DNA from: a virus
Lineage: Duplodnaviria; Heunggongvirae; Uroviricota; Caudoviricetes
Virus record (IMG/VR): IMGVR_UViG_3300008108_000023
Location: 64,001 to 128,000 of that record
Direction: 5' to 3' (one strand)
Length of the DNA: 64,000 bases
In this document: in pieces, positions 15,682 to 50,738 of the stretch
Layout: the number at the start of each line of letters is the position of its first letter
How positions within the stretch are numbered: the stretch's first letter is position 1
Notes under the pieces: model-generated
What the model was told of the DNA's origin: nothing
Databases searched by the model: none
Seen by the model: the letters and a program-made list of their open reading frames with translations, nothing else
Made by a program: the position numbers and the translations under genes

Positions 15682-15684
15682 TTA

Positions 15685-16035: not shown

Positions 16036-16041
16036 TATTTC

Positions 16042-16048
16042 ATAAATA
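16042..16048 (-). promoter_or_regulatory. Recurrent TATTTAT motif
   Basis: TATATTTATG, 6 nt before the ATG at 16035. Confidence 0.6.
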
Positions 16049-16060
16049 TAAATTCAATGT

Positions 16061-16909: not shown

Positions 16910-16935
16910 TTTTTAATTATTGATTTCTATATTTG

Positions 16936-16942
16936 ATAAATA
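16936..16942 (-). promoter_or_regulatory. Recurrent TATTTAT motif
   Basis: TATATTTATC, 26 nt before the ATG at 16909. Confidence 0.55.
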
Positions 16943-16972
16943 TAAAAAATCCTATTTTATAGTAAAGTTATT

Positions 16973-19537
16973 TTAACATCCATCACCAATTGTATACTGA
17001 GTAGTTACCGAACCAGAAACTACTTCATAAATTACACTTCCAATTTGAAAAAACCCATCAAATGTTGTTGTTAAGTTATTATTCGTGTAGATGGTAACAC
17101 CTGAATCATAAATATTGACCACATTTGGTAATGTGTATAATGTTACACTATACGAACCTGAACACAACACAACCCCACTACAGTAATTTGTACATCCAAC
17201 CATATTCCATTCTTGATATGTCGGACTAGGTGTTGGTGTAACTGATGGAGTTTTAGTTGGGGTTGGGGTTTTAGTTAAAGTAGGGGTTGGGGTTGGGGAA
17301 ACCGCTACCAAGGATGAACCACAAATTTCGTATAGAGCATTATCATTTATACCATATATTGTATTTGTCGGTACATACAAAGGTTTAGAAATACCGTCAC
17401 CAATAATTTCACTAAATATACCTGTTGTCGGGTCTAGAACACCTAAGAATCCATCTGACAATGTTGAATATCTGCTAATATATAATTTACCGTTATCAGG
17501 ATTATATATCATAGACCTTGTTGAGCCAAAAATCCAAGTTGCTCCCGATATTGAATTTAAAGTAAGTGTGGTGTTTGTTGCAACATCTATTTTGTATACC
17601 GTAGACGCACTAACTAAATAAATAATATTGTTCGTCACATCCAAAGCAATTAAACTTGCTGAGGTGATTGGTAGTGATGTACCATCTAACGAAATAGTAT
17701 TACCAGAACAAGAATATATTCTACCACTCTGAGCGAAATATAATTTATTATTATTAGGATTGTAAACAGTCGCTTCAGGGTTTGATAAAGTTATACCTGT
17801 AATTTGGTTTGTAAAAGTATCTGTTGAACCATCTATGACACTAATTTGTGAAACTGAAAAATTTCCACCTGTTTGACTAAATGCATAAATTTTATTTAAA
17901 ACAGAATTATATTCAATTTTTCCTAAACCTGATGTTATTCCCGAAATTGATATTGACGATGTTGTGTTTGTGTTTAAATTTCTTATTAACATTTTAACAG
18001 GAAATGATGATTCCCAACTGTATAATTTGTTGTTAGTTGAGTTATATCCTAATAATAAACTACTTCCTGACCATGTAAATTCATTTGTTAAACTTGTTGA
18101 ATTTGGGACAAAAGATTGTACAACACTTGATGCGTTTAGAACGTATGCTTTGTTATTTGATGATGAATAAACCATACCTTGTCTACCAACGGCAGAATAT
18201 GAATTCGTTGCGGCAAGAGTATTTCTAACTGAATCACTACAACCACCTGATGGTGTTGGGGTCAGGGTCGGGGTTACGGTATTAGTAGGTGTTACACTTG
18301 GGGTCGCAACTGGATTACCGGATGGACTTGGTGTTGGGGTTTTTGTTGGGGTCGGGGTTGGAGATACAATAGGTACAGGTAATGTAAAATTCACAGAATT
18401 AGTACACGTACCAGTACTTTGAACTGTAAATGTTGTTATTGAATAACACACAAGTGCGGTATACCCAGATAATAATTGAGATGTTGTCACACCAGTTGCA
18501 ATTAATACTATAGTTCCTCCTGTTGTTGTTCCCGAAATATTATAAGGTCCGGCTTGCGTTAAAAAATAAATTGGGTGTAATGAGAATGTATATTGAGTAC
18601 ATCCTGTAGGTACTAGTGAAGGTGATGGGGTTACTGTGGGTGTTACACTAACAGTTACCGAAGGTGTTAATGAAGGGGTATTTGTGGGTGTATTTGTTGG
18701 TGTAACCGAAGGTGTCGAACCTAACGTACTTGACGGTGTATTTGTGGGTGTATTTGTTGGTGTAACCGAAGGTGTCGGAGTTAGACTTGGAGTTTTTGTT
18801 GGAGTTACAGTATTTGTTGGGGTTGGGGTTTCGGAAGGAGTTTCGGAAGGAGTTTGTGTTAATGTGGGTGTTGGAGTTGGGGTCACACTCGGACAAACTA
18901 CAGTACAGAAACCATTGAAAGATATCCCTGCATATGGGTAACTCGGGTCGTAACAAACATATGTTGGTGAAAATGAACCACTATGATATACACCACAACA
19001 GTCCGTATAATACCAATTTGGTGAATCGGTTATACCTGAGTAACATAAAGTTGGTGTGGGTGTTGGAGTAGGGGTAGGAGTTGGACTTGGTGGTGTTAAA
19101 CAGTCAATACAATTTGTAAAAAGAGCATTTTCAGAAATTAATTGTGCAACAGTATAATTGTAAGTGGTGCTACCAGTGCCTTGTTCATAAACTCCTGTAT
19201 AGTTGTAACATGTACCATCATAAGAAATTGTTGCACCTGTACTTTGGAAATACTGATTAACTTCTGAATTTTTTAAACCAAAGTAAACAAATGCCCCTGG
19301 TATTTGGCAATGTTCAAATTGCCACCCATTAAAATCGTCGTTACATTGTTCACAGGTTGTATAACCACTAAAAATAACCGTACCTGACGGTCCACCTCCG
19401 ACATTTCCTGTTGAAGACCAACATTGGTAATCAGCAAAAATCGTGTCACCCGATAATACTAAACTGTCATCGACGACAAAATCATAGTATGACGCTGGGT
19501 CTAAACAATTTTGAAATGTTATTATTTGTGCTGGCAT
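16973..19537 (-). CDS. T/P-linker protein with Cys-rich modules and a YVTN/YncE-like beta-propeller
   Basis: Two N-terminal Cys modules, T/P tracts, and ~40-aa repeats YSSSNNKAY, YNSTNNKLY, YNSVLNKIY, YNPNNNKLY, DVTNNIIY, YNPDNGKLY. Confidence 0.8.
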   Translation of the reverse strand: MPAQIITFQNCLDPASYYDFVVDDSLVLSGDTIFADYQCWSSTGNVGGGPSGTVIFSGYTTCEQCNDDFNGWQFEHCQIPGAFVYFGLKNSEVNQYFQSTGATISYDGTCYNYTGVYEQGTGSTTYNYTVAQLISENALFTNCIDCLTPPSPTPTPTPTPTPTLCYSGITDSPNWYYTDCCGVYHSGSFSPTYVCYDPSYPYAGISFNGFCTVVCPSVTPTPTPTLTQTPSETPSETPTPTNTVTPTKTPSLTPTPSVTPTNTPTNTPSSTLGSTPSVTPTNTPTNTPSLTPSVTVSVTPTVTPSPSLVPTGCTQYTFSLHPIYFLTQAGPYNISGTTTGGTIVLIATGVTTSQLLSGYTALVCYSITTFTVQSTGTCTNSVNFTLPVPIVSPTPTPTKTPTPSPSGNPVATPSVTPTNTVTPTLTPTPSGGCSDSVRNTLAATNSYSAVGRQGMVYSSSNNKAYVLNASSVVQSFVPNSTSLTNEFTWSGSSLLLGYNSTNNKLYSWESSFPVKMLIRNLNTNTTSSISISGITSGLGKIEYNSVLNKIYAFSQTGGNFSVSQISVIDGSTDTFTNQITGITLSNPEATVYNPNNNKLYFAQSGRIYSCSGNTISLDGTSLPITSASLIALDVTNNIIYLVSASTVYKIDVATNTTLTLNSISGATWIFGSTRSMIYNPDNGKLYISRYSTLSDGFLGVLDPTTGIFSEIIGDGISKPLYVPTNTIYGINDNALYEICGSSLVAVSPTPTPTLTKTPTPTKTPSVTPTPSPTYQEWNMVGCTNYCSGVVLCSGSYSVTLYTLPNVVNIYDSGVTIYTNNNLTTTFDGFFQIGSVIYEVVSGSVTTQYTIGDGC

Positions 19538-19581: not shown

Positions 19582-22500
19582 TTAACATGCTTCTCCACAA
19601 AATGTGTTACAATAATCACCACAACCAGTACCGTATGTATATTGCGAAGTATATATTGGTGGTACGAAGTTTCCTCTAAACAATATAAACACATTTGTCA
19701 CTCTCATAAGACAAACGCTATAATTACCAGGGGCGTTATAACCTTGTGTTGTGAATGTACCATCACAACATTGGTATGCAAAGTATACTTGATTATCATC
19801 TGAGGCTGTTAAATCATTAATATCAACAAAAAAGTCTGTACACAAACAATCACCACAAGCACCATCATACGTTATCTCCCCACCATAAGGACCTAATACA
19901 CTTGGAATACTACATGAACATATCTCAATTGTACCACTTGCTGGGTACACATTTGGGTCAAGTATTTCTGTGGGTGTTCCTCCACCGCAACAAGTGGTAT
20001 AGTTAACTATATTACCAGGTCCTAATCCTGTAATAATATATGACTCACAAACACATGGTGGAGTTGGGGTTGGGGTCGGAGTTGGAGTTGGGGTTGGGGT
20101 TGATGACGGATTTGAAACCGGAGATGGTGTTGGAGTGTTTGTTGGAGTGTTTGTTGGAGTTACAGTCTTGGTTGGTGTATTTGTAGGAGTATTGGTTGGT
20201 GTTAAAGTTGGAGTAACTGTCCTTGTTGGAGTATTTGTAGGGGTAAAGGTTGGAGTTACAGTCTTGGTTGGAGTATTTGTAGGGGTAAAGGTTGGAGTTA
20301 CAGTCTTGGTTGGTGTATTTGTAGGGGTAAAGGTTGGAGTTACAGTCTTGGTTGGTGTATTTGTAGGAGTATTGGTTGGTGTTAAAGTTGGAGTAACTGT
20401 CCTTGTTGGTGTATTTGTCGGTGTTTTTGTTGGGGTTAAAGTTGGTGTAACTGTTGGTGTAACTGTTGGGGTTGGTGAAGGACAAGGGTGATAAGTTTCA
20501 CATTCAGTACATGTATTGTATGTACCATACGCAGTGATTGCGGAACCAGGTACTCCTGGTCCGACTGAGTTTGTAACAAAATAACAACAACCATTAATTG
20601 ATATATAACGGTTTACTAAAAGATTTGGGTTAAATCCATTTTGACAACCAAATTGAATTGTATATTGTCCTGTTGTACCACAACATCCACATCTTTGTAA
20701 ATCGAAAATCCAAGTGGCGCATGGGTTAGCTCCAATACATGTTTCACATGTATCAACACTAAATGATGATGGTGGATAATACCCGTCAACCCCACTAAAG
20801 TTTGGTGGTGAGTAGGTTTGACTATAACCTTCAACAAAATAACAACATCCATTTATAACAATAGTTTGACCTTGTGAAATACCGCTTTGAACATAGGTCA
20901 AATTAGTTGTTATACTTAAATAAGAAATAGTATTACCTAAAATACCACCATCACAACATGGTAATAAATAAACATAACCAACCTGTAAGGATGGTGATGG
21001 TGTTACTGTGCTTGTTGGTGTTAATGTAGGAGTTAAAGTTGGTGTAACTGTTTTTGTTGGTGTATTGGTAGGGGTTACGGATGGTGTTCTCGTAGGAGTA
21101 ACACTATTGGTTGGGGTGTTAGTCGGGGTTAAAGTTGGTGTAACTGTTCTTGTTGGTGTATTGGTAGGGGTTACCGTAGGGCTAACAGTGGCGGCTGGAG
21201 TTCTTGTTGGAGTAACAGTATTTGTTGGGGTATTGGTTGGTGTGAGAGTTGGTGTAACTGTTCTTGTTGGTGTATTGGTAGGGGTTACCGTATTCGTAGG
21301 TGTAACAGTTCTGGTTGGTGTTGGTGTCGGGGTTGGTGATGGACAAAAATTTAGAGTTTCTCCTAAACATTGTGCACAACTTGTCTGAACAGTAGTGTAA
21401 ATCGTACCTCCAGGTCCTACCTGTTGCACATACGTTGCACATAACTGAATGTCTTGTAAATAAAATACCGTACCTAACAATGTACCTAATGGTACTTGAC
21501 CATAATAAACATTGGTGTCACCAGGACAACATGATTCAAATCTAGCAGCAACATACTGAGGACTAGCCGTTGGGGTTACTGTTTTGGTTGGTGTCAATGT
21601 TGGTGTAACAGTATTTGTTGGAGTGTTAGTTGGTGTTACGGTTGGACTAACTGTGGCAGCCGGTGTTCTTGTTGGTGTAACAGTATTTGTTGGGGTATTT
21701 GTTGGAGTTACCGTAGGACTAACAGTGGCTGCTGGAGTTCTTGTTGGGGTATTGGTTGGGGTAACAGTATTTGTGGGGGTTACTGTGTTCGTTGGGGTAT
21801 TGGTAGGTGTATTTGTTGGTGTTAATGTTGGACTAACAGTAGCCGCTGGTGTTCTTGTTGGTGTAACAGTATTTGTTGGGGTATTTGTTGGAGTTACCGT
21901 ATTTGTTGGAGTATTAGTTGGGGTGTTAGTTGGTGTTACAGTGTTGGTTGGTGTATTAGTTGGAGTTAAAGTTGGTGTAACTGTTCTTGTTGGTGTATTG
22001 GTAGGTGTAACTGTATTCGTAGGGGTGACTGTATTAGTTGGAGTGTTGGTTGGAGTATTAGTTGGAGTTAAGGTTGGACTAACAGTGGCAGCTGGTGTTC
22101 TTGTCGGGGTTACGGTATTAGTAGGGGTATTGGTTGGAGTTACCGTATTTGTTGGAGTATTAGTTGGGGTGTTGGTTGGAGTAACAGTGTTGGTTGGGGT
22201 GTTAGTAGGGGTGTTGGTCGGTGTAACTGTATTTGTTGGAGTAACAGTATTAGTAGGTGTGTTTGTTGGTGTGTTAGTCGGTGTTAATGTTGGACTAACA
22301 GTAGCCGCTGGTGTTCTCGTAGGAGTTACAGTATTGGTAGGAGTATTGGTAGGAGTAACGGTGTTTGTTGGGGTGTTTGTAGGAGTATTGGTTGGTGTTA
22401 CAGTATTGGTTGGAGTATTGGTTGGTGTAAAAGTTGGTGTAACAGTTTTTGTTGGTGTATTAGTAGGAGTATTGGTCGGTGTGACAGTGTTGGTTGGTGT

Positions 22501-22803
22501 TACTGTATTTGTTGGAGTATTGGTTGGGGTATTGGTTGGTGTAAGGGTAGGACTAACAGTGGCTGCCGGAGTTCTTGTTGGAGTAACAGTATTGGTTGGG
22601 GTATTGGTTGGTGTAACAGTATTAGTCGGCGTATTGGTTGGAGTATTTGTTGGTGTGACTGTATTCGTTGGAGTGTTAGTAGGTGTAAAAGTTGGTGTGA
22701 CGGTTCTTGTTGGTGTATTGGTTGGTGTAACGGTATTGGTTGGGGTGTTTGTGGGTGTAAGGGTAGGACTAACAGTGGCGGCCGGAGTTCTTGTTGGAGT
22801 CAC
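19582..22803 (-). CDS. C-terminal part of the giant T/P-repeat protein (T/P tracts + Cys-rich modules)
   Basis: The track's start is a GTG (Val) inside the repeat with no intergenic space. The frame continues upstream in repeat register to the lesion at ~23085, so this is probably not an independent gene start. Confidence 0.75.
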
Positions 22804-25800
22804 TGTATTGGTCGGTGTGTTGGTGGGTGTGACTGTGTTAGTAGGTGTATTTGTAGGTGTATTAGTTGGTGTGACTGTATTTGTTGGAGTGTTTGTTGGG
22901 GTGTTTGTGGGTGTAACAGTATTAGTAGGAGTATTGGTTGGTGTTACAGTTTTGGTTGGAGTGTTAGTAGGTGTAACAGTATTAGTAGGTGTATTGGTAG
23001 GTGTATTGGTTGGTGTAACAGTATTCGTAGGAGTATTTGTTGGAGTATTTGTTGGACTAACAGTAGCTGCTGGTGTTCTTGTTTTACAGTGTTAGTCGGA
23101 GTGTTAGTTGGTGTATTCGTTGGTGTAACGGTATTTGTTGGGGTGTTAGTTGGTGTATTTGTTGGTGTTACTGTATTGGTAGGAGTATTTGTAGGACTCA
23201 ATGTAGGTGTAACTGTATTGGTCGGTGTTAAAGTTGGTGTAACTGTCTTTGTTGGTGTATTAGTAGGTGTCTGAGTTGGTGTAACTGTATTAGTCGGAGT
23301 ATTAGTAGGCGTAACAGTGTTTGTTGGAGTATTGGTTGGGGTATTTGTAGGAGTTACCGTATTGGTTGGGGTGTTTGTAGGAGTATTGGTAGGGGTGACA
23401 GTCTTGGTTGGAGTATTTGTGGGGGTAACAGTATTTGTTGGGGTAACCGTATTAGTTGGTGTGTTGGTTGGAGTATTTGTTGGGGTTAGAGTTGGTGTAA
23501 CAGTTTTTGTTGGTGTATTAGTTGGAGTAACGGTATTTGTTGGGGTATTGGTTGGGGTATTTGTAGGAGTTACCGTATTAGTCGGGGTATTAGTAGGCGT
23601 AACAGTGTTTGTTGGAGTATTGGTTGGGGTGTTTGTAGGAGTTAAGGTAGGTGTAACAGTCTTGGTTGGGGTGTTGGTTGGTGTAACTGTATTAGTAGGT
23701 GTGTTAGTTGGTGTAACTGTATTAGTAGGTGTATTTGTTGGAGTATTTGTTGGGGTAACAGTATTCGTAGGAGTATTGGTCGGTGTTAATGTAGGAGTAA
23801 CAGTTCTTGTTGGAGTATTTGTTGGGGTAACAGTATTCGTAGGAGTATTAGTAGGTGTTAATGTAGGTGTAACAGTCTTGGTCGGAGTGTTTGTAGGAGT
23901 ATTTGTTGGTGTAACAGTGTTTGTTGGTGTTACCGTGTTTGTAGGAGTATTGGTAGGAGTGTTCGTTGGAGTATTGGTTGGTGTTAATGTAGGTGTAACA
24001 GTATTAGTAGGTGTTAATGTAGGTGTAACAGTCTTGGTTGGGGTGTTTGTAGGAGTATTTGTTGGTGTAACGGTGTTCGTAGGGGTAACTGTAGGACTCA
24101 ATGTAGGGGTTACAGTATTGGTCGGAGTATTAGTAGGTGTTAATGTAGGTGTAACAGTCTTGGTTGGTGTATTGGTTGGGGTAACCGTGTTAGTTGGTGT
24201 GTTGGTGGGTGTTACTGTATTAGTAGGAGTAACTGTAGGACTCAATGTAGGAGTTACAGTCTTGGTTGGTGTATTAGTGGGTGTGTTTGTTGGTGTAACA
24301 GTATTGGTTGGGGTAACCGTGTTAGTTGGTGTGTTGGTTGGAGTATTTGTTGGGGTATTGGTTGGGGTGACTGTCTTAGTCGGTGTATTAGTTGGGGTTA
24401 CTGTATTTGTTGGTGTAACCGTATTTGTTGGTGTATTTGTGGGTGTATTGGTTGGAGTTAAAGTTGGTGTTACAGTTTTTGTTGGTGTGTTGGTCGGTGT
24501 AACTGTATTTGTTGGTGTATTTGTGGGTGTATTGGTCGGTGTAACTGTATTTGTTGGAGTATTTGTTGGGGTGTTAGTGGGTGTAACAGTATTAGTAGGA
24601 GTATTTGTGGGCGTATTGGTCGGTGTAACTGTATTTGTCGGAGTATTGGTTGGGGTATTTGTTGGTGTAACGGTGTTCGTAGGGGTAACTGTAGGACTCA
24701 ATGTAGGGGTTACAGTGTTTGTAGGAGTGTTTGTGGGAGTGTTGGTTGGGGTAACTGTATTAGTAGGAGTAACTGTAGGGGTGACAGTTTTAGTAGGTGT
24801 ATTAGTTGGAGTATTGGTAGGGGTTACAGTATTAGTAGGGGTATTTGTAGGAGTTAATGTAGGAGTTACAGTCTTGGTTGGGGTATTTGTTGGTGTAACG
24901 GTGTTCGTAGGGGTAACTGTAGGACTCAATGTGGGAGTCACCGTATTGGTCGGAGTATTGGTGGGGGTTACTGTATTAGTAGGAGTATTAGTAGGAGTAT
25001 TGGTTGGGGTTACCGTGTTGGTCGGAGTTAAAGTTGGTGTAACAGTTTTTGTTGGTGTATTGGTTGGAGTTACAGTGTTCGTAGGGGTATTTGTTGGTGT
25101 TAGAGTTGGTGTAACAGTTTTTGTTGGTGTATTAGTAGGAGTTACGGTGTTAGTTGGAGTGTTGGTAGGTGTGTTAGTTGGTGTTACAGTGTTGGTTGGT
25201 GTATTAGTAGGTGTCTGAGTTGGTGTAACTGTCTTGGTTGGGGTATTAGTTGGCGTTACAGTATTGGTTGGGGTTACCGTATTTGTAGGAGTTACGGTAT
25301 TGGTTGGAGTAACAGTATTAGTCGGCGTTACTGTGTTAGTTGGGGTGTTAGTGGGGGTAACAGTATTAGTAGGAGTAACGGAATTCGTGGGAGTGTTTGT
25401 AGGAGTGTTTGTTGGTGTTAATGTAGGTGTTACGGTTTTTGTTGGTGTATTGGTTGGGGTTACTGTATTTGTAGGAGTATTTGTAGGAGTTAAGGTAGGT
25501 GTAACAGTATTGGTTGGGGTATTGGTAGGTGTGTTGGTCGGGGTGACTGTGTTAGTTGGTGTAACTGTATTAGTTGGTGTATTCGTAGGGGTTTGAGTTG
25601 GTGTAACAGTATTGGTTGGGGTATTTGTTGGAGTTAAAGTTGGTGTGACAGTTTTTGTTGGTGTATTGGTAGGAGTTACGGTATTTGTAGGAGTATTAGT
25701 CGGTGTCTGAGTTGGTGTTACGGTGTTTGTTGGAGTATTGGTTGGAGTTAATGTAGGTGTTACAGTCTTGGTTGGTGTATTAGTTGGTGTTACAGTATTA

Positions 25801-28800
25801 GTAGGTGTAACAGTATTAGTAGGTGTAACAGTGTTTGTAGGTGTAACGGTATTGGTGGGAGTCACCGTATTAGTTGGTGTGTTAGTTGGGGTTACGGTGT
25901 TGGTTGGAGTAACGGTATTTGTTGGGGTGTTTGTAGGAGTGTTTGTTGGTGTTAATGTAGGTGTTACGGTTTTTGTTGGTGTATTGGTTGGTGTAACAGT
26001 ATTTGTTGGTGTGTTGGTGGGTGTGTTGGTGGGTGTTACAGTATTAGTTGGGGTATTAGTAGGACTCAATGTTGGGGTAACAGTATTCGTTGGTGTTACA
26101 GTATTGGTTGGAGTGTTTGTTGGGGTATTTGTTGGGGTTACGGTATTAGTAGGGGTATTGGTTGGAGTTAATGTAGGAGTAACAGTCTTGGTTGGTGTAT
26201 TAGTTGGCGTAACAGTGTTTGTTGGGGTGTTAGTTGGGGTATTTGTAGGGGTTACCGTATTGGTCGGAGTGTTGGTTGGTGTTAATGTAGGAGTAACAGT
26301 CTTGGTTGGAGTGTTTGTTGGGGTAACAGTATTGGTTGGAGTCACTGTATTAGTTGGTGTGTTGGTCGGTGTATTTGTTGGGGTTAAAGTTGGTGTGACA
26401 GTTTTTGTTGGTGTATTGGTTGGGGTTACTGTGTTAGTAGGAGTGTTTGTAGGTGTATTAGTAGGGGTATTAGTATTAGTCGGGGTATTGGTCGGTGTAA
26501 CTGTATTCGTTGGAGTAACGGTAGGAGTTAATGTAGGAGTAACAGTCTTGGTTGGTGTATTAGTAGGTGTGTTAGTAGGGGTTACCGTATTGGTTGGGGT
26601 GTTAGTCGGGGTAACTGTGTTAGTTGGTGTGTTAGTTGGTGTGTTGGTCGGAGTTACCGTATTTGTTGGAGTATTTGTAGGGGTTAAGGTAGGCGTAACA
26701 GTTCTTGTTGGAGTATTGGTCGGTGTAACTGTATTCGTTGGAGTTACAGTGTTAGTGGGGGTTACGGTATTGGTCGGCGTTACAGTGTTAGTCGGTGTTA
26801 CCGTATTAGTTGGAGTATTTGTTGGCGTAACAGTGTTTGTTGGAGTTACAGTGTTTGTGGGGGTATTGGTTGGAGTATTGGTGGGAGTCTGAGTTGGGGT
26901 GACTGTCTTAGTTGGGGTATTGGTCGGGGTAACTGTGTTGGTTGGAGTAACGGTATTTGTTGGGGTATTGGTCGGGGTATTGGTTGGAGTTAAAGTTGGC
27001 GTAACAGTGTTTGTTGGTGTATTGGTAGGTGTTACAGTATTAGTTGGGGTATTGGTTGGAGTTAAAGTTGGTGTAACAGTTTTTGTTGGTGTATTAGTTG
27101 GCGTTACAGTATTAGTTGGTGTGTTAGTTGGTGTGTTTGTTGGGGTTACCGTATTGGTCGGAGTTACCGTAGGACTCAATGTAGGAGTTACAGTATTAGT
27201 TGGTGTGTTGGTTGGTGTGACTGTATTCGTTGGAGTGTTAGTAGGTGTCTGAGTTGGGGTAACAGTATTTGTTGGAGTATTGGTAGGAGTATTGGTAGGG
27301 GTTACAGTATTGGTAGGAGTATTGGTAGGGGTTACAGTATTGGTAGGAGTATTCGTTGGGGTTAGAGTTGGTGTAACAGTTTTGGTAGGAGTATTAGTAG
27401 GGGTTACAGTATTTGTAGGAGTTACCGTAGGACTCAATGTGGGAGTCACCGTATTAGTTGGTGTATTGGTTGGGGTTACGGTGTTGGTTGGAGTGTTTGT
27501 AGGTGTATTAGTTGGAGTAACAGTATTTGTAGGTGTATTAGTCGGGGTATTGGTTGGTGTTACGGTGTTGGTTGGGGTTAAAGTTGGTGTGACAGTTTTT
27601 GTTGGTGTATTGGTTGGCGTAACAGTGTTTGTCGGAGTATTAGTTGGGGTGTTGGTTGGTGTATTAGTTGGAGTTACAGTGTTGGTTGGAGTGTTAGTTG
27701 GTGTTACGGTATTGGTTGGGGTTACTGTGTTTGTAGGAGTATTGGTCGGTGTATTCGTTGGGGTTAGAGTTGGTGTAACAGTTTTGGTAGGAGTATTAGT
27801 AGGAGTTATAGTATTCGTTGGTGTGTTGGTCGGTGTAACAGTATTAGTTGGGGTGTTGGTTGGGGTGTTGGTTGGAGTAACAGTATTAGTTGGAGTATTA
27901 GTTGGGGTGTTGGTTGGAGTAACAGTGTTTGTTGGGGTTACCGTAGGGCTCAATGTGGGAGTTACAGTTTTAGTAGGGGTGTTTGTTGGAGTTACGGTGT
28001 TGGTTGGGGTATTGGTTGGTGTGTTAGTTGGTGTAACTGTATTAGTGGGAGTCACTGTAGGGCTCAATGTTGGAGTTACAGTGTTGGTTGGGGTGTTAGT
28101 TGGTGTATTGGTTGGTGTAACTGTATTCGTTGGAGTGTTTGTAGGAGTGTTGGTTGGGGTTACAGTATTAGTTGGTGTGTTGGTTGGAGTTAATGTAGGT
28201 GTAACGGTTCTTGTGGGGGTGTTGGTAGGGGTTACGGTATTAGTTGGAGTGTTTGTTGGGGTATTTGTTGGGGTTACGGTATTAGTTGGAGTGTTTGTTG
28301 GGGTATTTGTTGGGGTTACGGTATTAGTAGGGGTATTGGTTGGGGTATTTGTTGGGGTTACGGTATTAGTAGGGGTATTGGTTGGAGTTAATGTAGGTGT
28401 AACGGTTCTTGTGGGGGTGCTGGTAGGGGTTACGGTGTTAGTTGGAGTGTTGGTAGGTGTGTTAGTTGGCGTAACGGTGTTAGTTGGAGTCACAGTCGGA
28501 CTCAATGTAGGTGTTACTGTATTTGTTGGGGTGTTGGTAGGGGTATTTGTAGGTGTTACGGTGTTGGTAGGTGTAACTGTTGGACTCAATGTAGGAGTCA
28601 CAGTATTTGTTGGTGTATTTGTAGGTGTGTTAGTTGGGGTAACGGTATTAGTTGGAGTGTTGGTTGGTGTATTTGTTGGTGTTACTGTGTTAGTAGGGGT
28701 ATTTGTGGGAGTATTTGTAGGTGTTACGGTGTTGGTAGGTGTAACTGTTGGACTCAATGTGGGAGTCACAGTTTTAGTAGGAGTATTTGTAGGTGTTACG

Positions 28801-31800
28801 GTGTTGGTAGGTGTGTTTGTTGGGGTATTGGTTGGAGTTACCGTATTCGTCGGAGTATTAGTAGGGGTGTTAGTTGGAGTTACAGTGTTTGTTGGTGTGT
28901 TTGTAGGGGTATTGGTAGGTGTTACTGTGTTAGTAGGAGTATTTGTAGGAGTATTGGTTGGTGTTACGGTATTTGTAGGAGTTACAGTTGGTGTTAATGT
29001 AGGAGTCACCGTGTTTGTTGGGGTATTGGTGGGAGTATTTGTAGGGGTTACCGTATTTGTCGGTGTATTGGTTGGTGTTAAAGTAGGTGTAACCGTTCTT
29101 GTTGGAGTGTTAGTTGGTGTAACCGTATTTGTAGGAGTATTAGTAGGGGTGTTGGTAGGGGTTACAGTATTCGTAGGGGTATTGGTTGGTGTATTCGTGG
29201 GTGTGACAGTATTAGTTGGTGTTACGGTTGGACTCAGTGTAGGGGTTACTGTATTGGTTGGAGTGTTAGTTGGGGTATTTGTAGGTGTAACTGTATTTGT
29301 TGGGGTGTTTGTAGGTGTATTAGTTGGTGTAACTGTATTAGTTGGTGTATTCGTAGGGGTTTGAGTTGGTGTAACAGTATTTGTAGGAGTCACAGTCGGA
29401 CTCAATGTGGGAGTCACGGTCTTAGTCGGTGTGTTAGTAGGGGTAACTGTGTTCGTAGGAGTTACCGTAGGACTCAATGTAGGGGTGACAGTGTTGGTTG
29501 GAGTATTGGTTGGTGTGTTGGTTGGTGTTACGGTGTTTGTAGGAGTTACTGTATTAGTAGGAGTGTTCGTAGGGGTATTGGTAGGGGTTACTGTGTTAGT
29601 TGGAGTGTTAGTAGGTGTATTGGTAGGAGTAACTGTATTGGTTGGTGTATTTGTGGGTGTAACAGTGTTAGTTGGTGTGTTAGTTGGTGTGTTGGTAGGA
29701 GTTACGGTGTTAGTTGGAGTATTTGTAGGTGTCTGAGTTGGTGTAACTGTATTCGTAGGGGTTACAGTCGGACTCAGTGTAGGTGTTACTGTGTTAGTCG
29801 GGGTAACTGTAGGTGTATTTGTTGGAGTTACAGTGTTGGTTGGGGTGTTGGTTGGAGTTACGGTGTTCGTTGGAGTATTGGTTGGTGTATTAGTTGGGGT
29901 TACTGTATTAGTTGGAGTATTGGTTGGGGTATTGGTTGGAGTTACAGTCTTGGTTGGTGTGTTGGTTGGTGTTACGGTGTTTGTTGGAGTATTGGTTGGA
30001 GTGTTTGTGGGGGTGTTGGTTGGTGTTACGGTGTTTGTTGGGGTGACTGTATTGGTTGGAGTGTTTGTTGGGGTGTTGGTGGGAGTATTTGTAGGGGTTA
30101 CCGTATTTGTCGGTGTATTGGTTGGTGTTAAAGTAGGTGTAACCGTTCTTGTTGGAGTTACAGTCGGACTCAATGTTGGAGTTACTGTATTGGTTGGTGT
30201 TAGTGTCGGGCTTAATGTTGGTGTAACAGTACTAGTTGGGGTATTGGTTGGGGTGTTGGTTGGAGTTACCGTATTGGTTGGTGTATTCGTCGGTGTATTT
30301 GTAGGTGTAACAGTATTCGTAGGTGTTACAGTTGGAGTATTGGTTGGGGTTACTGTGTTAGTTGGAGTATTGGTGGGGGTATTGGTTGGAGTAACAGTAT
30401 TTGTTGGTGTCACAGTCGGACTCAATGTTGGTGTAACAGTTTTTGTTGGGGTATTTGTCGGTGTCTGAGTTGGTGTTACGGTATTGGTTGGCGTATTGGT
30501 AGGAGTATTGGTTGGCGTATTTGTTGGAGTTACGGTATTAGTTGGTGTGACTGTATTGGTTGGGGTGTTAGTCGGCGTGTTCGTAGGGGTGTTGGTTGGT
30601 GTTACCGTATTTGTTGGTGTATTAGTAGGTGTGTTAGTAGGTGTTACTGTATTTGTAGGCGTGTTCGTGGGAGTCTGAGTTGGTGTTACAGTGTTAGTAG
30701 GAGTGTTAGTTGGCGTGTTAGTGGGTGTAACAGTATTAGTAGGAGTCACCGTTGGACTCAATGTAGGTGTAACAGTATTGGTTGGTGTGTTGGTCGGAGT
30801 GTTGGTAGGAGTTACAGTATTAGTAGGAGTCACCGTTGGACTCAATGTAGGTGTAACTGTATTTGTTGGGGTATTTGTTGGGGTATTGGTAGGAGTTACT
30901 GTATTAGTCGGAGTGTTGGTCGGGGTGTTGGTTGGAGTAACAGTGTTGGTGGGAGTATTGGTTGGAGTGTTAGTTGGTGTATTTGTTGGGGTTACGGTGT
31001 TGGTTGGAGATACCGTATTTGTAGGAGTATTGGTTGGAGTGTTAGTTGGGGTTAGTGTTGGGGTTACGGTGTTTGTTGGGGTATTGGTAGGTGTATTGGT
31101 TGGTGTAACGGTATTTGTAGGAGTAACAGTGTTGGTTGGAGTATTGGTAGGACTTAATGTTGGCGTATTAGTTGGGGTTACGGTGCTGGTTGGAGTCACT
31201 GTTGGACTCAATGTAGGTGTAACTGTATTTGTTGGTGTGTTGGTAGGAGTGTTTGTAGGAGTCACAGTATTAGTAGGAGTCACAGTTGGACTTAATGTGG
31301 GAGTTACTGTATTAGTTGGAGTGTTGGTAGGTGTGTTAGTTGGGGTTACTGTATTTGTCGGGGTATTGGTTGGGGTATTTGTTGGTGTAACGGTGTTGGT
31401 CGGAGTGTTTGTGGGAGTATTTGTAGGAGTTACTGTGTTCGTAGGAGTTACTGTAGGACTCAATGTTGGTGTTACTGTATTTGTTGGGGTGTTAGTAGGA
31501 GTGTTTGTTGGAGTCACCGTGTTTGTTGGGGTATTGGTGGGAGTATTTGTTGGTGTAACAGTATTTGTTGGGGTGTTAGTTGGGGTGTTGGTAGGAGTTA
31601 CCGTATTGGTTGGTGTGTTAGTTGGGGTGTTGGTAGGAGTTACCGTATTGGTTGGTGTGTTAGTAGGAGTGTTTGTTGGTGTAACAGTATTGGTTGGTGT
31701 GTTAGTAGGAGTGTTTGTTGGTGTAACAGTATTGGTAGGAGTTACAGTTGGGGTGTTGGTTGGAGTTACAGTATTAGTAGGCGTATTGGTAGGAGTATTA

Positions 31801-34800
31801 GTTGGAGTTACTGTATTTGTAGAAGTATTGGTAGGAGTATTGGTAGGGGTGACAGTATTGGTGGGCGTATTGGTAGGAGTATTGGTTGGGGTGACTGTAT
31901 TTGTTGGAGTATTTGTTGGGGTGTTAGTTGGAGTTACTGTATTTGTAGGAGTATTGGTAGGAGTATTGGTAGGGGTGACAGTATTGGTGGGGGTGTTTGT
32001 AGGAGTATTGGTAGGGGTGACAGTATTGGTTGGAGTATTAGTTGGGGTGACTGTATTTGTTGGAGTATTTGTTGGGGTGTTGGTAGGGGTGTTGGTAGGA
32101 GTTACAGTATTGGTTGGAGTAACTGTATTGGTTGGAGTGTTTGTCGGGGTATTTGTAGGTGTCAGTGTCGGTGTTACGGTATTTGTTGGAGTATTAGTAG
32201 GAGTGTTAGTTGGTGTAACCGTATTTGTTGGTGTATTTGTGGGTGTATTGGTAGGAGTAACTGTATTGGTAGCCGTATTGGTAGGAGTGTTGGTTGGTGT
32301 ATTAGTTGGTGTGACTGTATTGGTCGGAGTTACCGTCGGTGTATTTGTTGGGGTTACGGTATTGGTAGGGGTTACTGTTGGTGTATTCGTAGGCGTGTTT
32401 GTTGGGGTTACGGTATTTGTTGGAGTATTAGTGGGGGTATTCGTAGGTGTATTGGTTGGTGTTACGGTGTTAGTTGGGGTATTTGTAGGGGTTTGAGTTG
32501 GTGTAACGGTATTGGTTGGAGTCACTGTTGGACTCAATGTTGGCGTTACCGTATTGGTAGGAGTATTAGTTGGCGTATTGGTAGGAGTAACTGTGTTGGT
32601 TGGGGTGTTGGTAGGAGTGTTAGTTGGTGTTACAGTATTAGTTGGTGTGTTAGTTGGTGTGTTTGTTGGTGTTACGGTGTTCGTAGGGGTGTTAGTAGGT
32701 GTCAGTGTTGGGGATACCGTATTGGTAGGAGTGTTAGTTGGTGTATTTGTAGGGGTTACCGTATTGGTAGGAGTATTAGTTGGTGTATTTGTAGGAGTAG
32801 CAGTATTAGTAGGGGTATTTGTTGGAGTATTGGTCGGTGTTACAGTGTTTGTTGGAGTGTTGGTTGGTGTTACAGTGTTTGTTGGGGTGTTTGTCGGAGT
32901 GTTGGTTGGGGTATTCGTTGGTGTTACAGTATTTGTAGGGGTTACGGTGTTGGTTGGAGTATTGGTGGGGCTTAATGTTGGGGTATTTGTAGGGGTTACG
33001 GTGTTGGTTGGGGTCGCTGTTGGAGTCAATGTAGGTGTAACTGTATTGGTTGGGGTATTGGTAGGAGTATTGGTTGGGGTAACAGTATTGGTAGGAGTAA
33101 CTGTTGGACTCAATGTAGGAGTAACTGTATTGGTAGGAGTGTTTGTTGGTGTATTGGTTGGTGTTACAGTATTAGTTGGAGTATTTGTTGGAGTTAAAGT
33201 TGGTGTAACAGTTTTTGTTGGTGTATTAGTTGGGGTGTTAGTAGGAGTTACTGTATTGGTTGGTGTGTTTGTGGGAGTATTGGTTAATGTAACGGATGGT
33301 GTTACAGTGTTGGTTGGTGTTACCGTTGGAGTATTGGTGGGTGTTGGGGTGCTCGTTGGAGTTGGTGAGGGTAACATTGTATAATCAATGTCACAAGAAG
33401 GTGCTGGTGTTGGTGAAACCGTCACAGTTACACTTGGTGTATTTGTTGGAGTTACAGTATTGGTTGGAGTTACAGTATTTGTCGGGGTGTTTGTGGGGGT
33501 AACTGTATTGGTTGGAGTCACTGTTGGACTCAATGTTGGTGTTACAGTGTTAGTAGGAGTGTTGGTCGGCGTGTTAGTTGGAGTATTGGTTGGTGTTACG
33601 GTGTTAGTTGGTGTTACCGTAGGACTCAATGTAGGAGTCACAGTATTGGTAGGTGTATTGGTTGGAGTATTGGTTGGTGTTACGGTGTTAGTTGGTGTTA
33701 CCGTAGGACTCAATGTAGGAGTCACAGTATTCGTTGGTGTGTTTGTAGGTGTATTAGTCGGAGTTACGGTGTTGGTTGGAGTTACGGTATTTGTGGGAGT
33801 GTTTGTAGGAGTGTTGGTAGGAGTGTTTGTTGGAGTTACGGTGTTGGTTGGGGTATTGGTTGGGGTATTGGTTGGTGTAACGGTATTTGTAGGAGTATTT
33901 GTAGGTGTCTGAGTTGGAGTTACTGTATTCGTCGGTGTGTTTGTTGGGGTGTTGGTAGGAGTTACGGTATTGGTAGGACTTAATGTTGGAGTGTTAGTTG
34001 GAGTATTTGTTGGAGTTACTGTGTTGGTTGGAGTATTCGTAGGTGTAACCGTATTTGTTGGTGTATTAGTTGGGGTGTTTGTAGGTGTATTAGTTGGTGT
34101 CACAGTTTCTGTTGGAGTCACTGTAACAGTATTGGTTGGTGTGACTGTATTGGTAGGGGTTACGGTGTTGGTTGGTGTAAGTGTTGGTGTTTCTGTGGGA
34201 GTATTTGTTGGTGTGTTGGTGGGGGTATTTGTTGGTGTTTCGGTTGGTGTATTTGTAGGTGTATTAGTTGGAGCTACCGTATTTGTTGGAGTTACAGTTG
34301 GAGTGTTAGTTGGGGTAACCGTTGGTGTAACAGTATTGGTAGGAGTATTGGTTGGGGTTTGAGTTGGTGTAACGGTTGCAGTATTTGTTGGTGTTAGGGT
34401 AGGTGTTTCAGTTTGTGTTACAGTGGGTGTATTGGTTGGAGTTACAGTATTGGTTGGAGTTACAGTTGAGGTATTAGTCGGAGTGTTAGTTGGTGTTATG
34501 GTGTTGGTTGGGGTATTGGTAGGTGTTTCGGTAGGGGTAACGGTTGGACTCAGTGTTGGTGTTACTGTGTTAGTCGGAGTATTAGTTGGGGTGTTGGTTG
34601 GTGTTTCGGTAGGGGTAACGGTTAGGGTTACGGTGTTGGTTGGAGTATTGGTTGGTGTTTCGGTTGGTGTTTCGGTTGGTGTATTAGTTGGGGTAACAGT
34701 ATTGGTTGGAGTTACAGTTGGGGTAACAGTTGGGGTAACAGTTGGAGTTACGGTGTTGGTTGGGGTATTGGTTGGTGTTTCGGTTGGTGTTTCGGTTGGT

Positions 34801-35500
34801 GTATTAGTTGGGGTAACAGTATTTGTTGGGGTGTTAGTGGGTGTTTCAGTCGGTGTATTAGTTGGGGTATTGGTTGGTGTTTCGGTAGGGGTTACTGTAT
34901 GAGTTGGTGTATTGGTAGGTGTTTCGGTAGGGGTTACCGTATTTGTTGGAGTTACAGTTGGAGTTTCGGTAGGGGTAACTGTATTTGTTGGGGTGTTGGT
35001 AGGTGTTTCAGTTGGTGTATTGGTTGGGGTTACCGTATTTGTTGGGGTTACAGTTGGAGTTTCGGTCGGAGTAACAGTTGGTGTCTCGGTTGGTGTAACT
35101 GTATTCGTAGGAGTTACAGTAGGTGTGTTGGCTGGTGATTCGGTTGGAGTTACTGTGTTAGTTGGGGTAACTGTAGGAGTTTCAGTTGGGGTAACCGTTG
35201 GGGTATTTGTTGGGGTATTGGTTGGAGTTACTGTGTTAGTTGGAGTAACTGTAGGAGTTTCAGTTGGGGTAACTGTAGGCTCGTTTGTTGGAGTATTAGT
35301 CGGAGTTACGGTATTCGTAGGAGTATTTGTTGGAGTGATAGTATTGGTTGGGGTAACAGTAGGTGTTTTTGTAACCGTAGGTGTAACAGTAGGGGTTTTG
35401 GTAACTGTTGGGGTTGGGGTATTTGAAGTAAAGGTTGTTGGTGTTGGTGTTAATGATGGTGTAAGTGTTGGTGAAGGTGTAGGTGAAGGTGTAGGGCAAG
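21560..35500 (-). repeat. ~14-kb coding tandem repeat of 12-nt (4-codon) units [16 protein letters not shown], synonymously diversified
   Basis: The plus strand is almost continuously gt(a/g)tt(a/g/t)gt(t/a/c)gg(a/t/g)-type units. One short non-repeat island ([11 protein letters not shown]) lies at ~33370-33405. Confidence 0.97.
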
Positions 35501-35690
35501 GAATCTCAGCCACACAAGTTTTATCAAGTGACGGAAAATAAACTGAGTAAGTACCTAAGTAGTAGTTTGTGTCGTAATAATATGGCATCACGACAGTACC
35601 TAAATTCAAGGTACCGCCAGTACAAGGATAAAATGTGATAACACCAATTTCACCATCAAAATTACCTGTGTTTATTTTTATTAATGCCAT
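22944..35690 (-). CDS. Giant mucin-like Thr/Pro/Asn/Val repeat protein (4,248 aa as called; frameshifted at ~23085)
   Basis: ATG at 35690, ~65-aa globular N-domain ([14 protein letters not shown]...CVAEIPC), then >4,100 residues of TPTN/TVTP repeats. The last ~46 aa (KQEHQQLLL...) are out-of-frame repeat. Confidence 0.85.
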
Positions 35691-35730: not shown

Positions 35731-35759
35731 AATATACTCATTTATTCGGGTATTGTCAA
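35731..35759 (-). promoter_or_regulatory. Sigma-70-type promoter TTGACA-N17-TATATT upstream of the giant repeat gene
   Basis: Minus strand TTGACA-ATACCCGAATAAATGAG-TATATT, about 40 nt before the ATG at 35690. Confidence 0.6.
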
Positions 35760-35780: not shown

Positions 35781-38700
35781 TCATGGACAATCAAAAATGG
35801 AACTACTTAATTCCTCATTAGTTGGTTCTGTAGGACAATGGTTGGCATCGATATAATATTGACCGAGGTTGAATCCAATATTTGGATGTTTATCGTATTT
35901 GTGTTTCATCAGAATTTGGTCGCTGTTATTTCCATTGAAAACAACAACAAATTCATCAGTTAGTGGTGTATTGTCTAATTCAAAATTTAGATTGAAGTAT
36001 AATCCTGTATCGCAATAATTTAAGTCGACATCAATTACTTCTATGGTTTTACCATATTTGTTTATTAAATAATCCCCATGGTTATATAATTCTTTCGGAT
36101 GGTCACAACAAGGTTCAATAAAATCTGTTGGTTTTTTTTGTAATTCCTCTGGGAACCTATCGTCAAAAAAGTAAACACTATTTGTAGGTGTTCCAAAATT
36201 TTCAATGATTCTATTTGTATAAACTCTTAGTTGTGTTGTTGGTAAAACTTCAAAAACTTCATAAGTATTATTTTGGGTTAATCCTGTAATGATACTTTTC
36301 TTGATTGATGCTAAACATTCAATGTCTGTAATTTCAAGTTTTTGATAGTTGTACGTAAATGAATACCCTGATACAGGTCCATTCACAATTTGTTGGTGAC
36401 TATATTCTGTACATTGTTTGTAAGATGCAGATAAAACATATTCCCCAACATTTAAATCACAAACACTTTTACCACTTATCGTACCACCACTAATATAACT
36501 TTCAATATTGTCATCTGTAGTTTGGTTGTCAATGGTTAATCCGCTATCAACTACTAAAACTATAGAGTCACATTTTAAACCATAGTTAAAGTTTGATTTG
36601 TATTCAACTTTTGGTTGTATTGTGTAACCTGTGTAATTGTCACAATATGTTGCACCTGAAACAACTGAAATTGGGGATGATATTGTTCCTTGGTAACCAA
36701 CAATACTAAATAATTCTACGTGACTTTTTCCTGATGGTGTTGGACATGGGTCATGTTCAATTTTGGGTTGTAGACCTTCAATTTTGAATTTTACTTCTTT
36801 ATTTGCTGCATCTACAATATTAAAATCTATTACATCATTTTCTGAAAAACCAGTTAATTTATATACACAATCACTAACTTTTTGAATGTAAACATCCGCA
36901 TTTTCATTTGTTCCACTTACACAATTAGCATAAATGTTAAATGGCCATGTTGAACCTTGTTGGATACCTGTTTTGTATCCAATTACTTCAAAAAACACAT
37001 CACTCACTAATGTACATCCACTGTTTGAGTCGCAATAAACGGTATTATCAGTATAAACTTTAACACTGATTCCATTTGTATTTTTTGTGATTTTGTAATC
37101 GGCATCAAATCGATAATCAAAATAGTCGACCACTGAACATTCGTTTGGACCTAATTTTACGGATGAAAACTTAACTTTTTCAACACCATTTTCATCAGTG
37201 TATGTTGTGTATTTTATTAATGGTATTGTTTCTGAAAAATATGTTTGGCCTGTGGTTCCCGTGAAAGCAGAATAGGGTTCATACCCTGCACTATTTCTTG
37301 TAATAGTTACGTCATCAATCAATACAGATAACGCCGATAACCATAGTTCTTTAATTTTAGTAACATCAGGTTCAAGATAATCTTTATAATCACATATTAA
37401 GGAAAGATTTACCGTATCACCACTGGTGACCCCACTTGTACATCCTGTAAATGGTTGTGCATCAAATAATTTTGCACTGTTTGAAGTGTTACTTGTTCCA
37501 CTAACAATCACATACATAGAGGATGTTAGACCCGTGTAGTCGGCCCCACCATAAACTGTTCCATCAATTTCAATTACAGGATAGTAAGTAACACCTGTAA
37601 GGTTTATTAAACCTCTAAAATTATTTTCTTCACCTAAAATATTTTCTAAATCTTCCTCAATTACATTTTCAAAATCAGGGTATAGTTCCTCAATAAATTC
37701 TAATGGTTGACAATCATATCTATATTGATATTTTGGTCTACCAAACACGTTATTTTCTATTAAATTACCGCCGGTCCATTGAGTGGTTGATGGTACTAAT
37801 TGTTCAACTAATTGTGGCCAATAAGGTGATAATTTATTAACAAATTCAATAACATTTATTTGATTATATGGTGTAAAACCTGTTGTTTGTGATATATAAT
37901 CTCTATAGACATCTTCTAATTGAATATAATTTTTTTTGTAACGAATTTTGTTAGAATTTGTTACAAGTCCATGAATAAAGGTGTCTAAAAATTCAGCAAA
38001 AGTTTTACCTGTTTGGGGTAATAAAGTATTTGTACCAAAACTTATTAATAATTCTCTACTTTGTCTAAAGATATCATAATCTATACCTCGTGATGGTGAG
38101 ATATAAATTCCAATGTTTTTTCTATTTAAAATTAATAAATAATCATCCTCAATTGGTTTTCCGTCTTTATTATCGACCGCGGAAACCAATTCATAACCGG
38201 TATCTAAACCTGGTAATGTTCTATATAAATCAAAGTATTCTTCTCCGTATGTGTAGTTTTTATTCTTTGTTTTAATTGTTTTGGTGTTACCCGTTAGTAT
38301 TGAGTTACTACTGTCTAAAACGAGTGGAGTACGGTGTGATAATGTAATATCGTACCATCCTGAACCTTTACCAAAGAATATGTTTTCAGTTTCGTTATAT
38401 GCTCTTCTTGGTAGTCCAGTTTTTTCGTCTACAGGGTAACCCTCTCTGTCAAATGTTGTTGACGCTGAGTAGTAAACTTTAGAATATGTGAAACCTGTAC
38501 TATCAAAGGTGGCGTAAGAATATCTTTTGTTACCTTGAATCGCATCGTATATGTCTTGTTGTAAATTAAAACTAGATGGAATTGACGTTACTTTATAAAT
38601 GTATTCATCAATCCTAATCAAAGGCTCGGGTGCCCCCAAAAATTTTAAAAAGAAATCAATAGAGGATTTTGTTCCTTTTGATTTATAAATGTGAGCAAGA

Positions 38701-50737: not shown

Positions 50738-50738
50738 A

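Follow-up and report, generated by a model that had tools for sequence, protein, structure and literature searches.

A giant gene for a threonine- and proline-rich thread protein in an uncultured freshwater phage: a candidate virion-anchored tether-adhesin

Introduction

The long tail fibres of phage T4, fibritin, the L-shaped fibres of phage T5, and the head filament of phage phiCbK have a folded structure, for the most part that of a trimeric rod or a coiled coil, and lengths of tens to a few hundred nanometres. The subject of this study is a phage gene for a protein of another design. It is located on the minus strand, at positions 19582-35690, of a 64,000-nucleotide stretch of viral DNA (positions 64,001 to 128,000 of the IMG/VR record IMGVR_UViG_3300008108_000023), which is designated the window in the following, and it codes for a very large protein that consists for the greater part of a threonine-rich repeat. 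In the serine-rich-repeat adhesins (SRRPs) of Gram-positive bacteria, a stalk holds a variable binding region off the cell surface, and the polymorphic length of this stalk is thought to be tuned to the thickness of the capsule (PMC7661464). For the mycobacteriophages Che8, Corndog, and Myrna, phage-encoded transferases have been described which O-glycosylate the virion proteins of the phage itself (Freeman et al. 2023, as cited in PMC12619734). Here, we describe a computational analysis of the giant gene, its orthologues, and its surroundings. With a probability of about 0.55, we regard the gene as the extreme member of a lineage-specific phage protein family of "foot-thread-knob" design, whose products would serve as virion-anchored, flexible tether-adhesins.

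Structure of the giant gene and its product

The minus strand from 19582 to 35690 forms a single reading frame of 16,109 nt that is interrupted once. Open reading frame (ORF) A, at 22944-35690, starts with ATG and comprises 4,248 amino acids (aa) according to the ORF listing and its translation. ORF B is listed at 19582-22803 on the same strand, and its translation shows the frame to be open already from about position 23091, with the same repeat continuing. When the four missing nucleotides are restored, the gene has 16,113 nt and 5,370 codons; an earlier reading of the DNA without database searches, referred to here as the sequence-only reading, had arrived at the same single 4-nt lesion and the same size. 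An open frame of 4,248 codons cannot be attained by chance in a genome with approximately 32% G+C. The gene is real, and it is under selection at the protein level, namely for an alternating pattern.

The product of 5,370 aa is composed of an N-terminal domain of 66 aa, a (Thr-X)n thread of approximately 4,600 aa, corresponding to 86% of its length, and, towards the C-terminus, Cys-rich modules of the beta-sandwich type. This layout had been recognized by the sequence-only reading, and it holds, with a thread that is stricter than had been stated. The parts outside the repeat are the N-terminal domain, one island of 14 aa, a single Cys module, a double Cys module, and a terminal module of 158 aa. 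All parts described in this paragraph are on the minus strand. The N-terminal domain (aa 1-66, 35493..35690) is a small Ig/FN3-like beta-sandwich, as indicated by an AlphaFold2 (AF2) model, and represents the presumed foot. It is followed by thread part 1 (aa 67-4202, 23085..35492), which is delimited by translation, composition, and register count and in which X is Pro, Asn, or Val and charged residues are almost absent. The 14-aa island (aa 763-776, 33363..33404), which the sequence-only reading had not mentioned, lies within this part and recurs in some orthologues. Beyond the frame break at 23082..23085, translation of the second frame gives thread part 2 (21568..23085), which is built from 10-residue units and contains more Arg. 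Cys-rich module 1 with its short flanks (21322..21567) is connected by a Pro/Thr linker (20995..21321) to the double Cys-rich module (20461..20994). A second Pro/Thr linker (20092..20460), with units of 42 nt in its DNA period, leads to the region of the terminal module (19582..20091), which includes the 158-aa module itself (19585-20058) and the stop codon; in AF2 models and alignments, the module has two beta-sandwich lobes and a conserved YQCCDG motif.

Pattern, chemistry, and reach of the thread

In the thread (4,610 aa), Thr or Ser is present at 2,288 of the 2,305 positions of one dipeptide register and at eight positions of the other. Given a Thr or Ser at position i, the frequency of these residues is 0.99 at i+2 and 0.01 at odd lags. 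The X positions are occupied by Pro (969), Asn (727), Val (408), and Leu (82). Pro residues follow each other at distances of four or six residues in an aperiodic order, with one, two, or three four-residue units between the six-residue units. The 4,610 residues include no Gly and only four aromatic residues. ORF A as a whole contains 47.6% Thr, 20.7% Pro, 15.5% Asn, and 8.8% Val; the proportion of one half Thr that had been estimated by eye in the sequence-only reading is thus confirmed, whereas the quarter assumed for Pro is in fact a fifth. At the DNA level, the periods of the thread are mixed (12-114 nt, with 60-80% matches), and the coil length is not constant. An ice-binding TxT array was considered and dropped, since the coil length varies and Pro is too frequent.

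The alternation of Thr or Ser with other residues is 0.90-1.00 in the window gene and its three complete orthologues, which also share a polarity of charge: Glu is present near the foot only, the middle is uncharged, and Lys and Arg increase towards the knobs. The Glu residues are confined to the first 15-20% of the thread, and the polarity is maintained whatever the repeat vocabulary.

With 0.31 nm per residue, the contour length of the thread amounts to approximately 1.44 micrometres. The value of 1.4 micrometres proposed in the sequence-only reading therefore stands as a contour length, but not as a reach: a worm-like-chain estimate with a persistence length of 0.5-10 nm yields an expected root-mean-square reach of about 40-170 nm for the flexible chain. 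The gain in capture radius would thus be in the order of one tail length rather than a micrometre.

Authenticity of the gene length

A repeat tract of this size in a metagenomic assembly raises the question whether its length is genuine. None of the exact DNA repeats within the 16-kb gene reaches 101 nt, only six of approximately 16,000 81-mers recur, and 89% of the 31-mers occur there only once. In a set of 120 non-overlapping copies of an identical 14-mer peptide, the agreement at third codon positions is 0.386, compared with 0.382 expected from the codon usage of the tract. Since this agreement is practically that of chance, the peptide pattern has been conserved while the DNA has been fully scrambled. 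In other words, 4,600 residues of a near-perfect peptide repeat are encoded without a recombinogenic DNA repeat, which speaks for strong selection on the peptide pattern combined with complete synonymous scrambling.

The tract is also represented in independent data. Of the 31-mers sampled from positions 22500-32499, a share of 0.77-0.85 was present in 20 freshwater or lake sequencing runs from 14 studies (2017-2025), which shows that these words exist widely and says nothing on their order. For unique 31-mers of the flanks the share was 0.97-1.0, with one run at 0.80. An independent ENA contig from another sample (L106, ERZ4239552) is identical to the window in all modules within 19136-21996, with two exceptions. 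One is the absence, in frame, of a single 114-nt (38-aa) linker unit at about 21179-21292, in the linker between module 1 and the double module; the other is a scaffold gap of 100 N in the linker at 20092..20460. The in-frame difference of 114 nt indicates that the Pro/Thr linkers differ in length between co-circulating strains. Inflation of the tract, which the sequence-only reading had raised as a possible outcome of long-read sequencing, is unlikely given the lack of 101-nt exact repeats, the random synonymous sites, and the occurrence of the 31-mers in 14 studies; an assembly artefact is accordingly an unlikely source of the gene length.

The frame break

The repeat unit at the break (23082-23085) is spelled GTA AAA CAA GAA. 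Seven further copies of it, located downstream, have GTx ACA CCA ACA AGA, and by comparison with them CACC is missing at the break, which leaves an A-AAA run. The lesion is not a simple homopolymer miscount. ORF B lacks an ATG, and its first possible start codon, a GTG, is located 280 nt downstream. Past the break, the second frame is open for 1,168 codons with intact modules, so that any inactivation must be very recent; this argues against an old decay. A -1 slip on the A-AAA run would restore the repeat unit. When the pattern across the lesion was searched for with a variable gap, no match was obtained in IMG/VR or JGI metagenome contigs. Since the orthologues are single ORFs, a programmed frameshift that is conserved among them was dismissed. 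The lesion can be read in three ways: as an error of assembly or sequencing, as a real truncating allele of very recent origin that yields a headless thread, or as a break that is bypassed by -1 slippage on the A-AAA run.

Orthologues and their variation

As an anchor for synteny, the gene directly upstream of the giant gene was used, which encodes a protein of 1,414 aa (35781..40025, minus strand) and is conserved with 48-100% identity in 84 related IMG/VR loci. In the closer relatives, an orthologue with the same foot is located directly downstream of this anchor gene. Three orthologues are intact single ORFs: one of 2,940 aa in L001/G004 with the vocabulary TPSVTPTSSV, one of 2,737 aa in L010/G005 with the vocabulary TPTITPTVTPSTSV, and one of 4,989 aa in G001 with the vocabulary TPTNT[L/I/V]. 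A fourth, in G002, has at least 4,673 aa, its contig ending just inside the first Cys module. The foot and the types of end modules are common to all these proteins, and the repeat vocabularies differ. The comparison of tract lengths among relatives that had been suggested in the sequence-only reading thus reveals a roughly two-fold difference, and a lack of orthologues with the same N- and C-terminal domains, which that reading had considered as well, is not what was found. In distant relatives (anchor gene at most 68% identical), modular genes of ordinary size are present at the same site.

At least eight further contigs (L003, L004, L006, L008, L009, L017, L018, and L031) end inside the thread, 0.5-3.5 kb into the gene, and the thread appears as a systematic break point of short-read assemblies in this lineage.

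Sequence conservation is distributed unevenly along the protein. Between orthologues, the N-terminal domain is 80-89% identical and the end modules 30-53%, and the number of modules differs, too. The single Cys module shows 50-52% identity to its counterparts in L001 and L010, and the double module shows 53% identity to that of L010 and is absent from L001. The anchor gene is 97% identical to that of L001, yet the vocabulary of the thread is entirely different, from which it can be concluded that a variable cassette starts at the giant gene. A conserved foot combined with a fast-evolving, modular end is the usual pattern for host-recognition fibres, and to judge from these sequence comparisons the gene differs in length and vocabulary in the manner of a host-range cassette.

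Folded parts of the protein

Across 13 orthologues, the N-terminal domain is 70-97% identical to the copy in the window. Its AF2 model has a mean predicted local distance difference test (pLDDT) score of 79 and matches only generic Ig/FN3 folds (Z of about 6, full-length coverage). When proteins of 1,600-5,100 aa in a set of 5.8 billion were searched with this domain, no match was obtained; the gene calls there are probably contig-end fragments. The protein has neither a signal peptide nor a membrane segment, the maximal Kyte-Doolittle hydropathy over 15 residues being 0.84 in the first 40 aa. Besides the window gene, the island in the thread is present in L010/G005 (aa 611), in G001 (aa 1254), and in L017, and it is absent from L001/G004.

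For the terminal module, AF2 gives a mean pLDDT of 90.3 and a predicted template modelling (pTM) score of 0.81. A convincing relative of this fold was not found in the PDB (Foldseek E > 0.2, VIA Z at most 4.2), and the best VIA Z of 4.2 falls on generic jelly-roll, C2, and lectin-like sandwiches. The family of the terminal module is tiny, with 20 matches among 1.84 billion representatives, all of them short contig-end fragments. Back-translated patterns revealed no relatives of the module in IMG/VR or JGI contigs, and a feature search of the Atlas retrieved only unnamed viral clusters with scores of 0.83-0.86. No Pfam family was assigned to any of the non-repeat parts (N-terminal domain, Cys modules, and terminal module), PHROGs likewise yielded no match for the N-terminal domain and the Cys modules, and in GenBank phages neither the end modules nor the upstream 1,414-aa protein had a match.

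Genomic context

The IMG/VR record is a 155-kb fragment of the genome of an uncultured freshwater phage with an estimated completeness of about 50% (CheckV). It is probably one half of a jumbo-phage genome, so that absences in the record mean little. Distant relatives of the record are Flavobacterium and Microcystis myophages and a metagenomic phage of 484 kb. tRNA genes are absent from the record, and the idea of a special tRNA supply was dropped for this reason.

On the minus strand, the gene order is ribonucleotide reductase, gp25-like and gp6-like genes, five large unannotated structural ORFs, the giant gene, four shorter paralogues, and genes for replication and recombination. The gp6-like and gp25-like baseplate wedge genes (48905..51191, minus strand; phrog_6 with 1.7e-22 and phrog_261 with 4.3e-19) place the cluster in the tail module, and the giant gene is co-oriented with the structural genes of this tail/baseplate module, as is characteristic of the fibre class. 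The conserved structural protein of 1,414 aa has no match in Pfam, PHROG, or PDB. A sequence search of the PDB was also negative for three neighbouring genes, and Pfam and PHROGs were blank for most neighbours.

The four downstream paralogues (12760..19537, minus strand) encode proteins of 854, 282, 116, and 973 aa that have the same design of Cys modules joined by Pro/Thr linkers; their matches to phrog_15511 fall on the linker regions. In the 854-aa paralogue (16973-19537), central repeated motifs of the type NNK(L/I)Y resemble beta-propeller blades and are flanked by Cys modules with short Pro/Thr linkers, and this protein may provide the family with a second head for receptor binding. A domain-less protein of 2,637 aa from a JGI metagenome (P0045) contains 105 Cys residues, long Pro/Thr linkers, and an N-terminal GPFDIY motif, with which genes in the fibre clusters of the distant relatives L038, L043, and L047 begin as well. 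P0045 probably belongs to the same family of phage proteins, as a member with many modules.

A candidate sigma-70-like promoter (35731..35759, minus strand) with the hexamers TTGACA and TATATT, a 17-nt spacer, and 11 of 12 consensus matches is situated in the 90 nt that separate the giant gene from the gene before it, about 40 nt ahead of the start codon. It is the best minus-strand site within 19300-36100; the overall count of promoter sites is not above that of a shuffled control, which makes it weak evidence.

Enzymes of sugar metabolism and possible glycosylation

A cluster of 15 co-oriented genes on the plus strand is located approximately 10-22 kb before the window (42,100-54,250 of G000, corresponding to 2127-14236 of L107). 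It encodes GT2-type transferases, a protein with a weak, sub-threshold GT-D-like match, a UDP-GlcNAc 2-epimerase, an NAD-dependent epimerase/dehydratase, and two FkbM methyltransferases. Membrane segments are lacking in all 15 proteins, and the cluster includes neither a flippase nor a polymerase. The Thr threads are an obvious candidate substrate for these enzymes.

A search for GtfA and GtfB in the about 50% complete record gave one match of the GT1 family with 17.6 bits, compared with a cut-off of 26.4. Members of GT60 (PF11397) or GT41 (PF13844) were not found in the half-complete record. N-glycosylation of the thread was rejected, since only two of its 727 Asn residues are located in N-X-S/T sequons. 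The O-glycosylation motif of Bacteroidota, D-(S/T)-(A/I/L/V/M/T), does not occur at any site. O-glycosylation of the approximately 2,300 Thr residues of the thread by soluble enzymes of the phage, in the cytoplasm, is an attractive hypothesis suggested by the gene content, and it is the least certain element of the proposal that follows.

Proposed function and alternative explanations

According to the reading we prefer, the conserved 66-aa Ig-like N-terminal domain would fix the protein to the virion. The adjoining approximately 4,600 uncharged, alternating (Thr/Ser-X)n residues, with Pro at every fourth or sixth position, should form a non-globular, flexible, and extended thread, and the Cys-rich beta-sandwich modules at its distal end, which are variable, would bind a ligand on the host surface, probably a glycan. 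Used as a tether or fishing line, the thread could enlarge the capture radius by some 40-170 nm, and the knobs could pass capsule, sheath, or slime before the baseplate engages. In the least certain step, the soluble glycosyltransferases of the phage might O-glycosylate the thread in the cytoplasm and thereby stiffen it and protect it from proteases. As a tentative extension, more doubtful than the tether-adhesin itself, one can envisage a sugar-coated thread of micrometre contour whose length (2,700-5,400 aa) and vocabulary are swapped between phages to suit the thickness and chemistry of host capsules or sheaths, as a viral counterpart of the serine-rich-repeat adhesins.

Several points weigh against this proposal, in which production of the protein, its display on the virion, its binding, and its sugars are predictions from gene sequences. 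The genomic context is partial in a record that CheckV rates as only about 50% complete. In the assembly the frame is broken, which would leave the knobs detached if the lesion is neither an error nor bypassed. In Pfam, Foldseek, and VIA comparisons, neither the N-terminal domain nor the end modules were assigned to a known family of attachment or receptor-binding proteins, and it is unusual for a phage fibre to contain Cys-rich modules that are produced in a reducing cytoplasm. No glycosyltransferase found here can be tied to protein acceptors, the GT-D-like and GT1 matches being below the curated cut-offs.

Among the alternatives, a real 4-nt deletion deserves the most attention, although we consider it possible rather than probable. 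The allele in the window would then be headless or a decaying pseudogene, with a product of foot and thread (4,202 aa plus 46 out-of-frame residues) whose knobs are not made, or are made by rare -1 slippage. This explanation can draw on the fact that the deletion is present in the assembled sequence and is more than a homopolymer miscount, on the missing ATG of ORF B with its earliest start at a GTG 280 nt on, on the ability of a -1 slip at A-AAA to restore the unit, and on the in-frame length polymorphism between samples, according to which the locus does mutate; it has to contend with the unbroken state of all complete orthologues and with the 1,168 open codons and intact modules of the second frame, which would date any inactivation to the very recent past. 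An error of the assembler is invoked by the view that repeats were joined wrongly and the length is inflated or chimeric as a result; the frame break, with its change of vocabulary, would be a possible site. Many IMG/VR contigs indeed break within the gene, and the frame break falls at the first of the 10-residue units. Nevertheless, this view is very improbable: repeats of 101 nt or more that could confuse an assembler do not exist, synonymous sites are random between units, the gradient of Arg and Lys towards the knobs is gradual and common to all orthologues, the words of the tract are found in 14 studies, and an orthologue of 4,989 aa, which comes from a different sample and a separate assembly, is intact and has the same kind of non-repetitive DNA.

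If the protein is real and complete, it need not catch hosts. It might be a passive polymer brush or coat (against aggregation, grazing, or debris), a spacer, or a non-virion product that is released at lysis. A nearly uncharged, hydrophilic, and possibly glycosylated thread does resemble anti-fouling brushes, no receptor-binding fold was recognized, and the gene may have its own promoter. What makes us doubt a passive role is the signature of host recognition, i.e. the conserved foot and the fast-evolving, modular, and shuffled distal knobs, together with the presence of Cys-rich end modules, which a passive coat would not need, and the position among baseplate and fibre genes next to paralogues with beta-propeller-like heads. 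Nor need the thread be flexible, as a regular shaft (a beta-ribbon, a beta-solenoid, or a multi-chain rod) with all Thr side chains on one face would account for the perfect alternation of polar and other residues, which is a classic beta-strand pattern, and for the maintenance of one register over 4,610 residues, which suggests a constraint beyond that on an arbitrary linker. Such a shaft is improbable in view of Pro at every fourth or sixth residue in aperiodic order, of the mixed DNA periods of 12-114 nt with 60-80% matches and without a constant coil length, of the lack of Gly and the near absence of aromatic or large hydrophobic residues for a core, and of a vocabulary that differs freely between close relatives.

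Should the tether-adhesin be present on the virion, no other single-chain appendage so far proposed for a phage would come near it in length, and the natural variants would represent an experiment on how tether length and chemistry affect adsorption kinetics in dilute lake water. If the thread is in addition glycosylated by the phage itself, virion appendages would gain a new class, and virus-encoded glycosylation of proteins a new use. The combination of a thread and a cluster of soluble sugar enzymes offers a concrete candidate substrate for the lipopolysaccharide (LPS)-like gene clusters of phages, the target of which has long been unclear. Furthermore, the giant gene accounts for the single spot at which assemblies of this abundant group of freshwater phages break.

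Comparison with known systems

Searches of GenBank phages, Pfam, PHROGs, and the literature covered brought up no characterised phage protein with the design of the giant gene, which bears out the expectation of the sequence-only reading that an architecture of this size had not been characterised. That reading had proposed a phage analogue of mucins. Animal mucins do share a Pro/Thr/Ser-rich tandem-repeat core, Cys-rich flanks, and a very large size with the protein described here; they differ from it, however, in that the phage protein has no vWF-D, Cys-knot, or SEA-type domains (Pfam), no secretory pathway, and no homology to mucins, and it has a strict dipeptide register.

The best analogue is found in the serine-rich-repeat adhesins of Gram-positive bacteria, which are closer than the animal mucins. 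SRRPs such as Fap1, GspB, PsrP, and Srr1/2 likewise range from about 1,000 to more than 5,000 aa, and their bulk likewise is a very long dipeptide repeat of a hydroxyl residue and X, comparable to the register of 2,288/2,305 in the thread. In SRRPs the hydroxyl residue is Ser, whereas the phage thread uses Thr with Pro at every fourth to sixth residue, and the proteins are not homologous in sequence. Dedicated soluble transferases add sugars to the SRRP repeat in the cytoplasm, which for the phage protein is only hypothesised, and the GtfA/GtfB pair of the SRRP systems was not recognized in the half-complete phage record. Differences are also evident at both ends. SRRPs have an extended signal peptide for accessory-Sec export and a C-terminal LPXTG anchor; the phage protein, in contrast, lacks a hydrophobic N-terminal segment, its N-terminus being folded as a beta-sandwich in the model, contains no LPxTG anywhere, and ends in a Cys-rich module. 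Its binding modules would be located at the C-terminal tip and its anchor at the N-terminus, and its gene is part of a phage tail module.

With the long fibres and whiskers of phages, the giant protein has in common the genomic position, a conserved proximal and a variable distal end, and a presumed role in reversible first capture. It differs from them as a low-complexity thread with a contour of approximately 1.4 micrometres and without a recognizable fibre fold. In the mycobacteriophages mentioned above, short C-terminal tails of the capsid and tail-tube subunits are modified, whereas the putative substrate here consists of thousands of Thr residues on one fibre protein.

The chemistry of the thread has a counterpart in the Pro/Thr (PT) linkers of bacterial multidomain proteins that are secreted, such as glycoside hydrolases with carbohydrate-binding modules and proteins sorted by the type IX secretion system (T9SS), which show the same low-complexity alternation of Thr or Ser with X between small folded modules. 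Used as a query, the thread recovers large metagenomic proteins with tracts of this kind. Many large proteins that are secreted contain alternating tracts of 500-1,500 aa, and the longest one in the 120 best large matches has 1,539 aa. The length of PT linkers begins at tens of residues and reaches about 1,500 in the largest matches, whereas the phage tract comprises approximately 4,600 aa, i.e. 86% of a protein that carries no export signal. By sequence, the thread looks like a common bacterial linker that has been stretched several-fold into the main body of a phage fibre.

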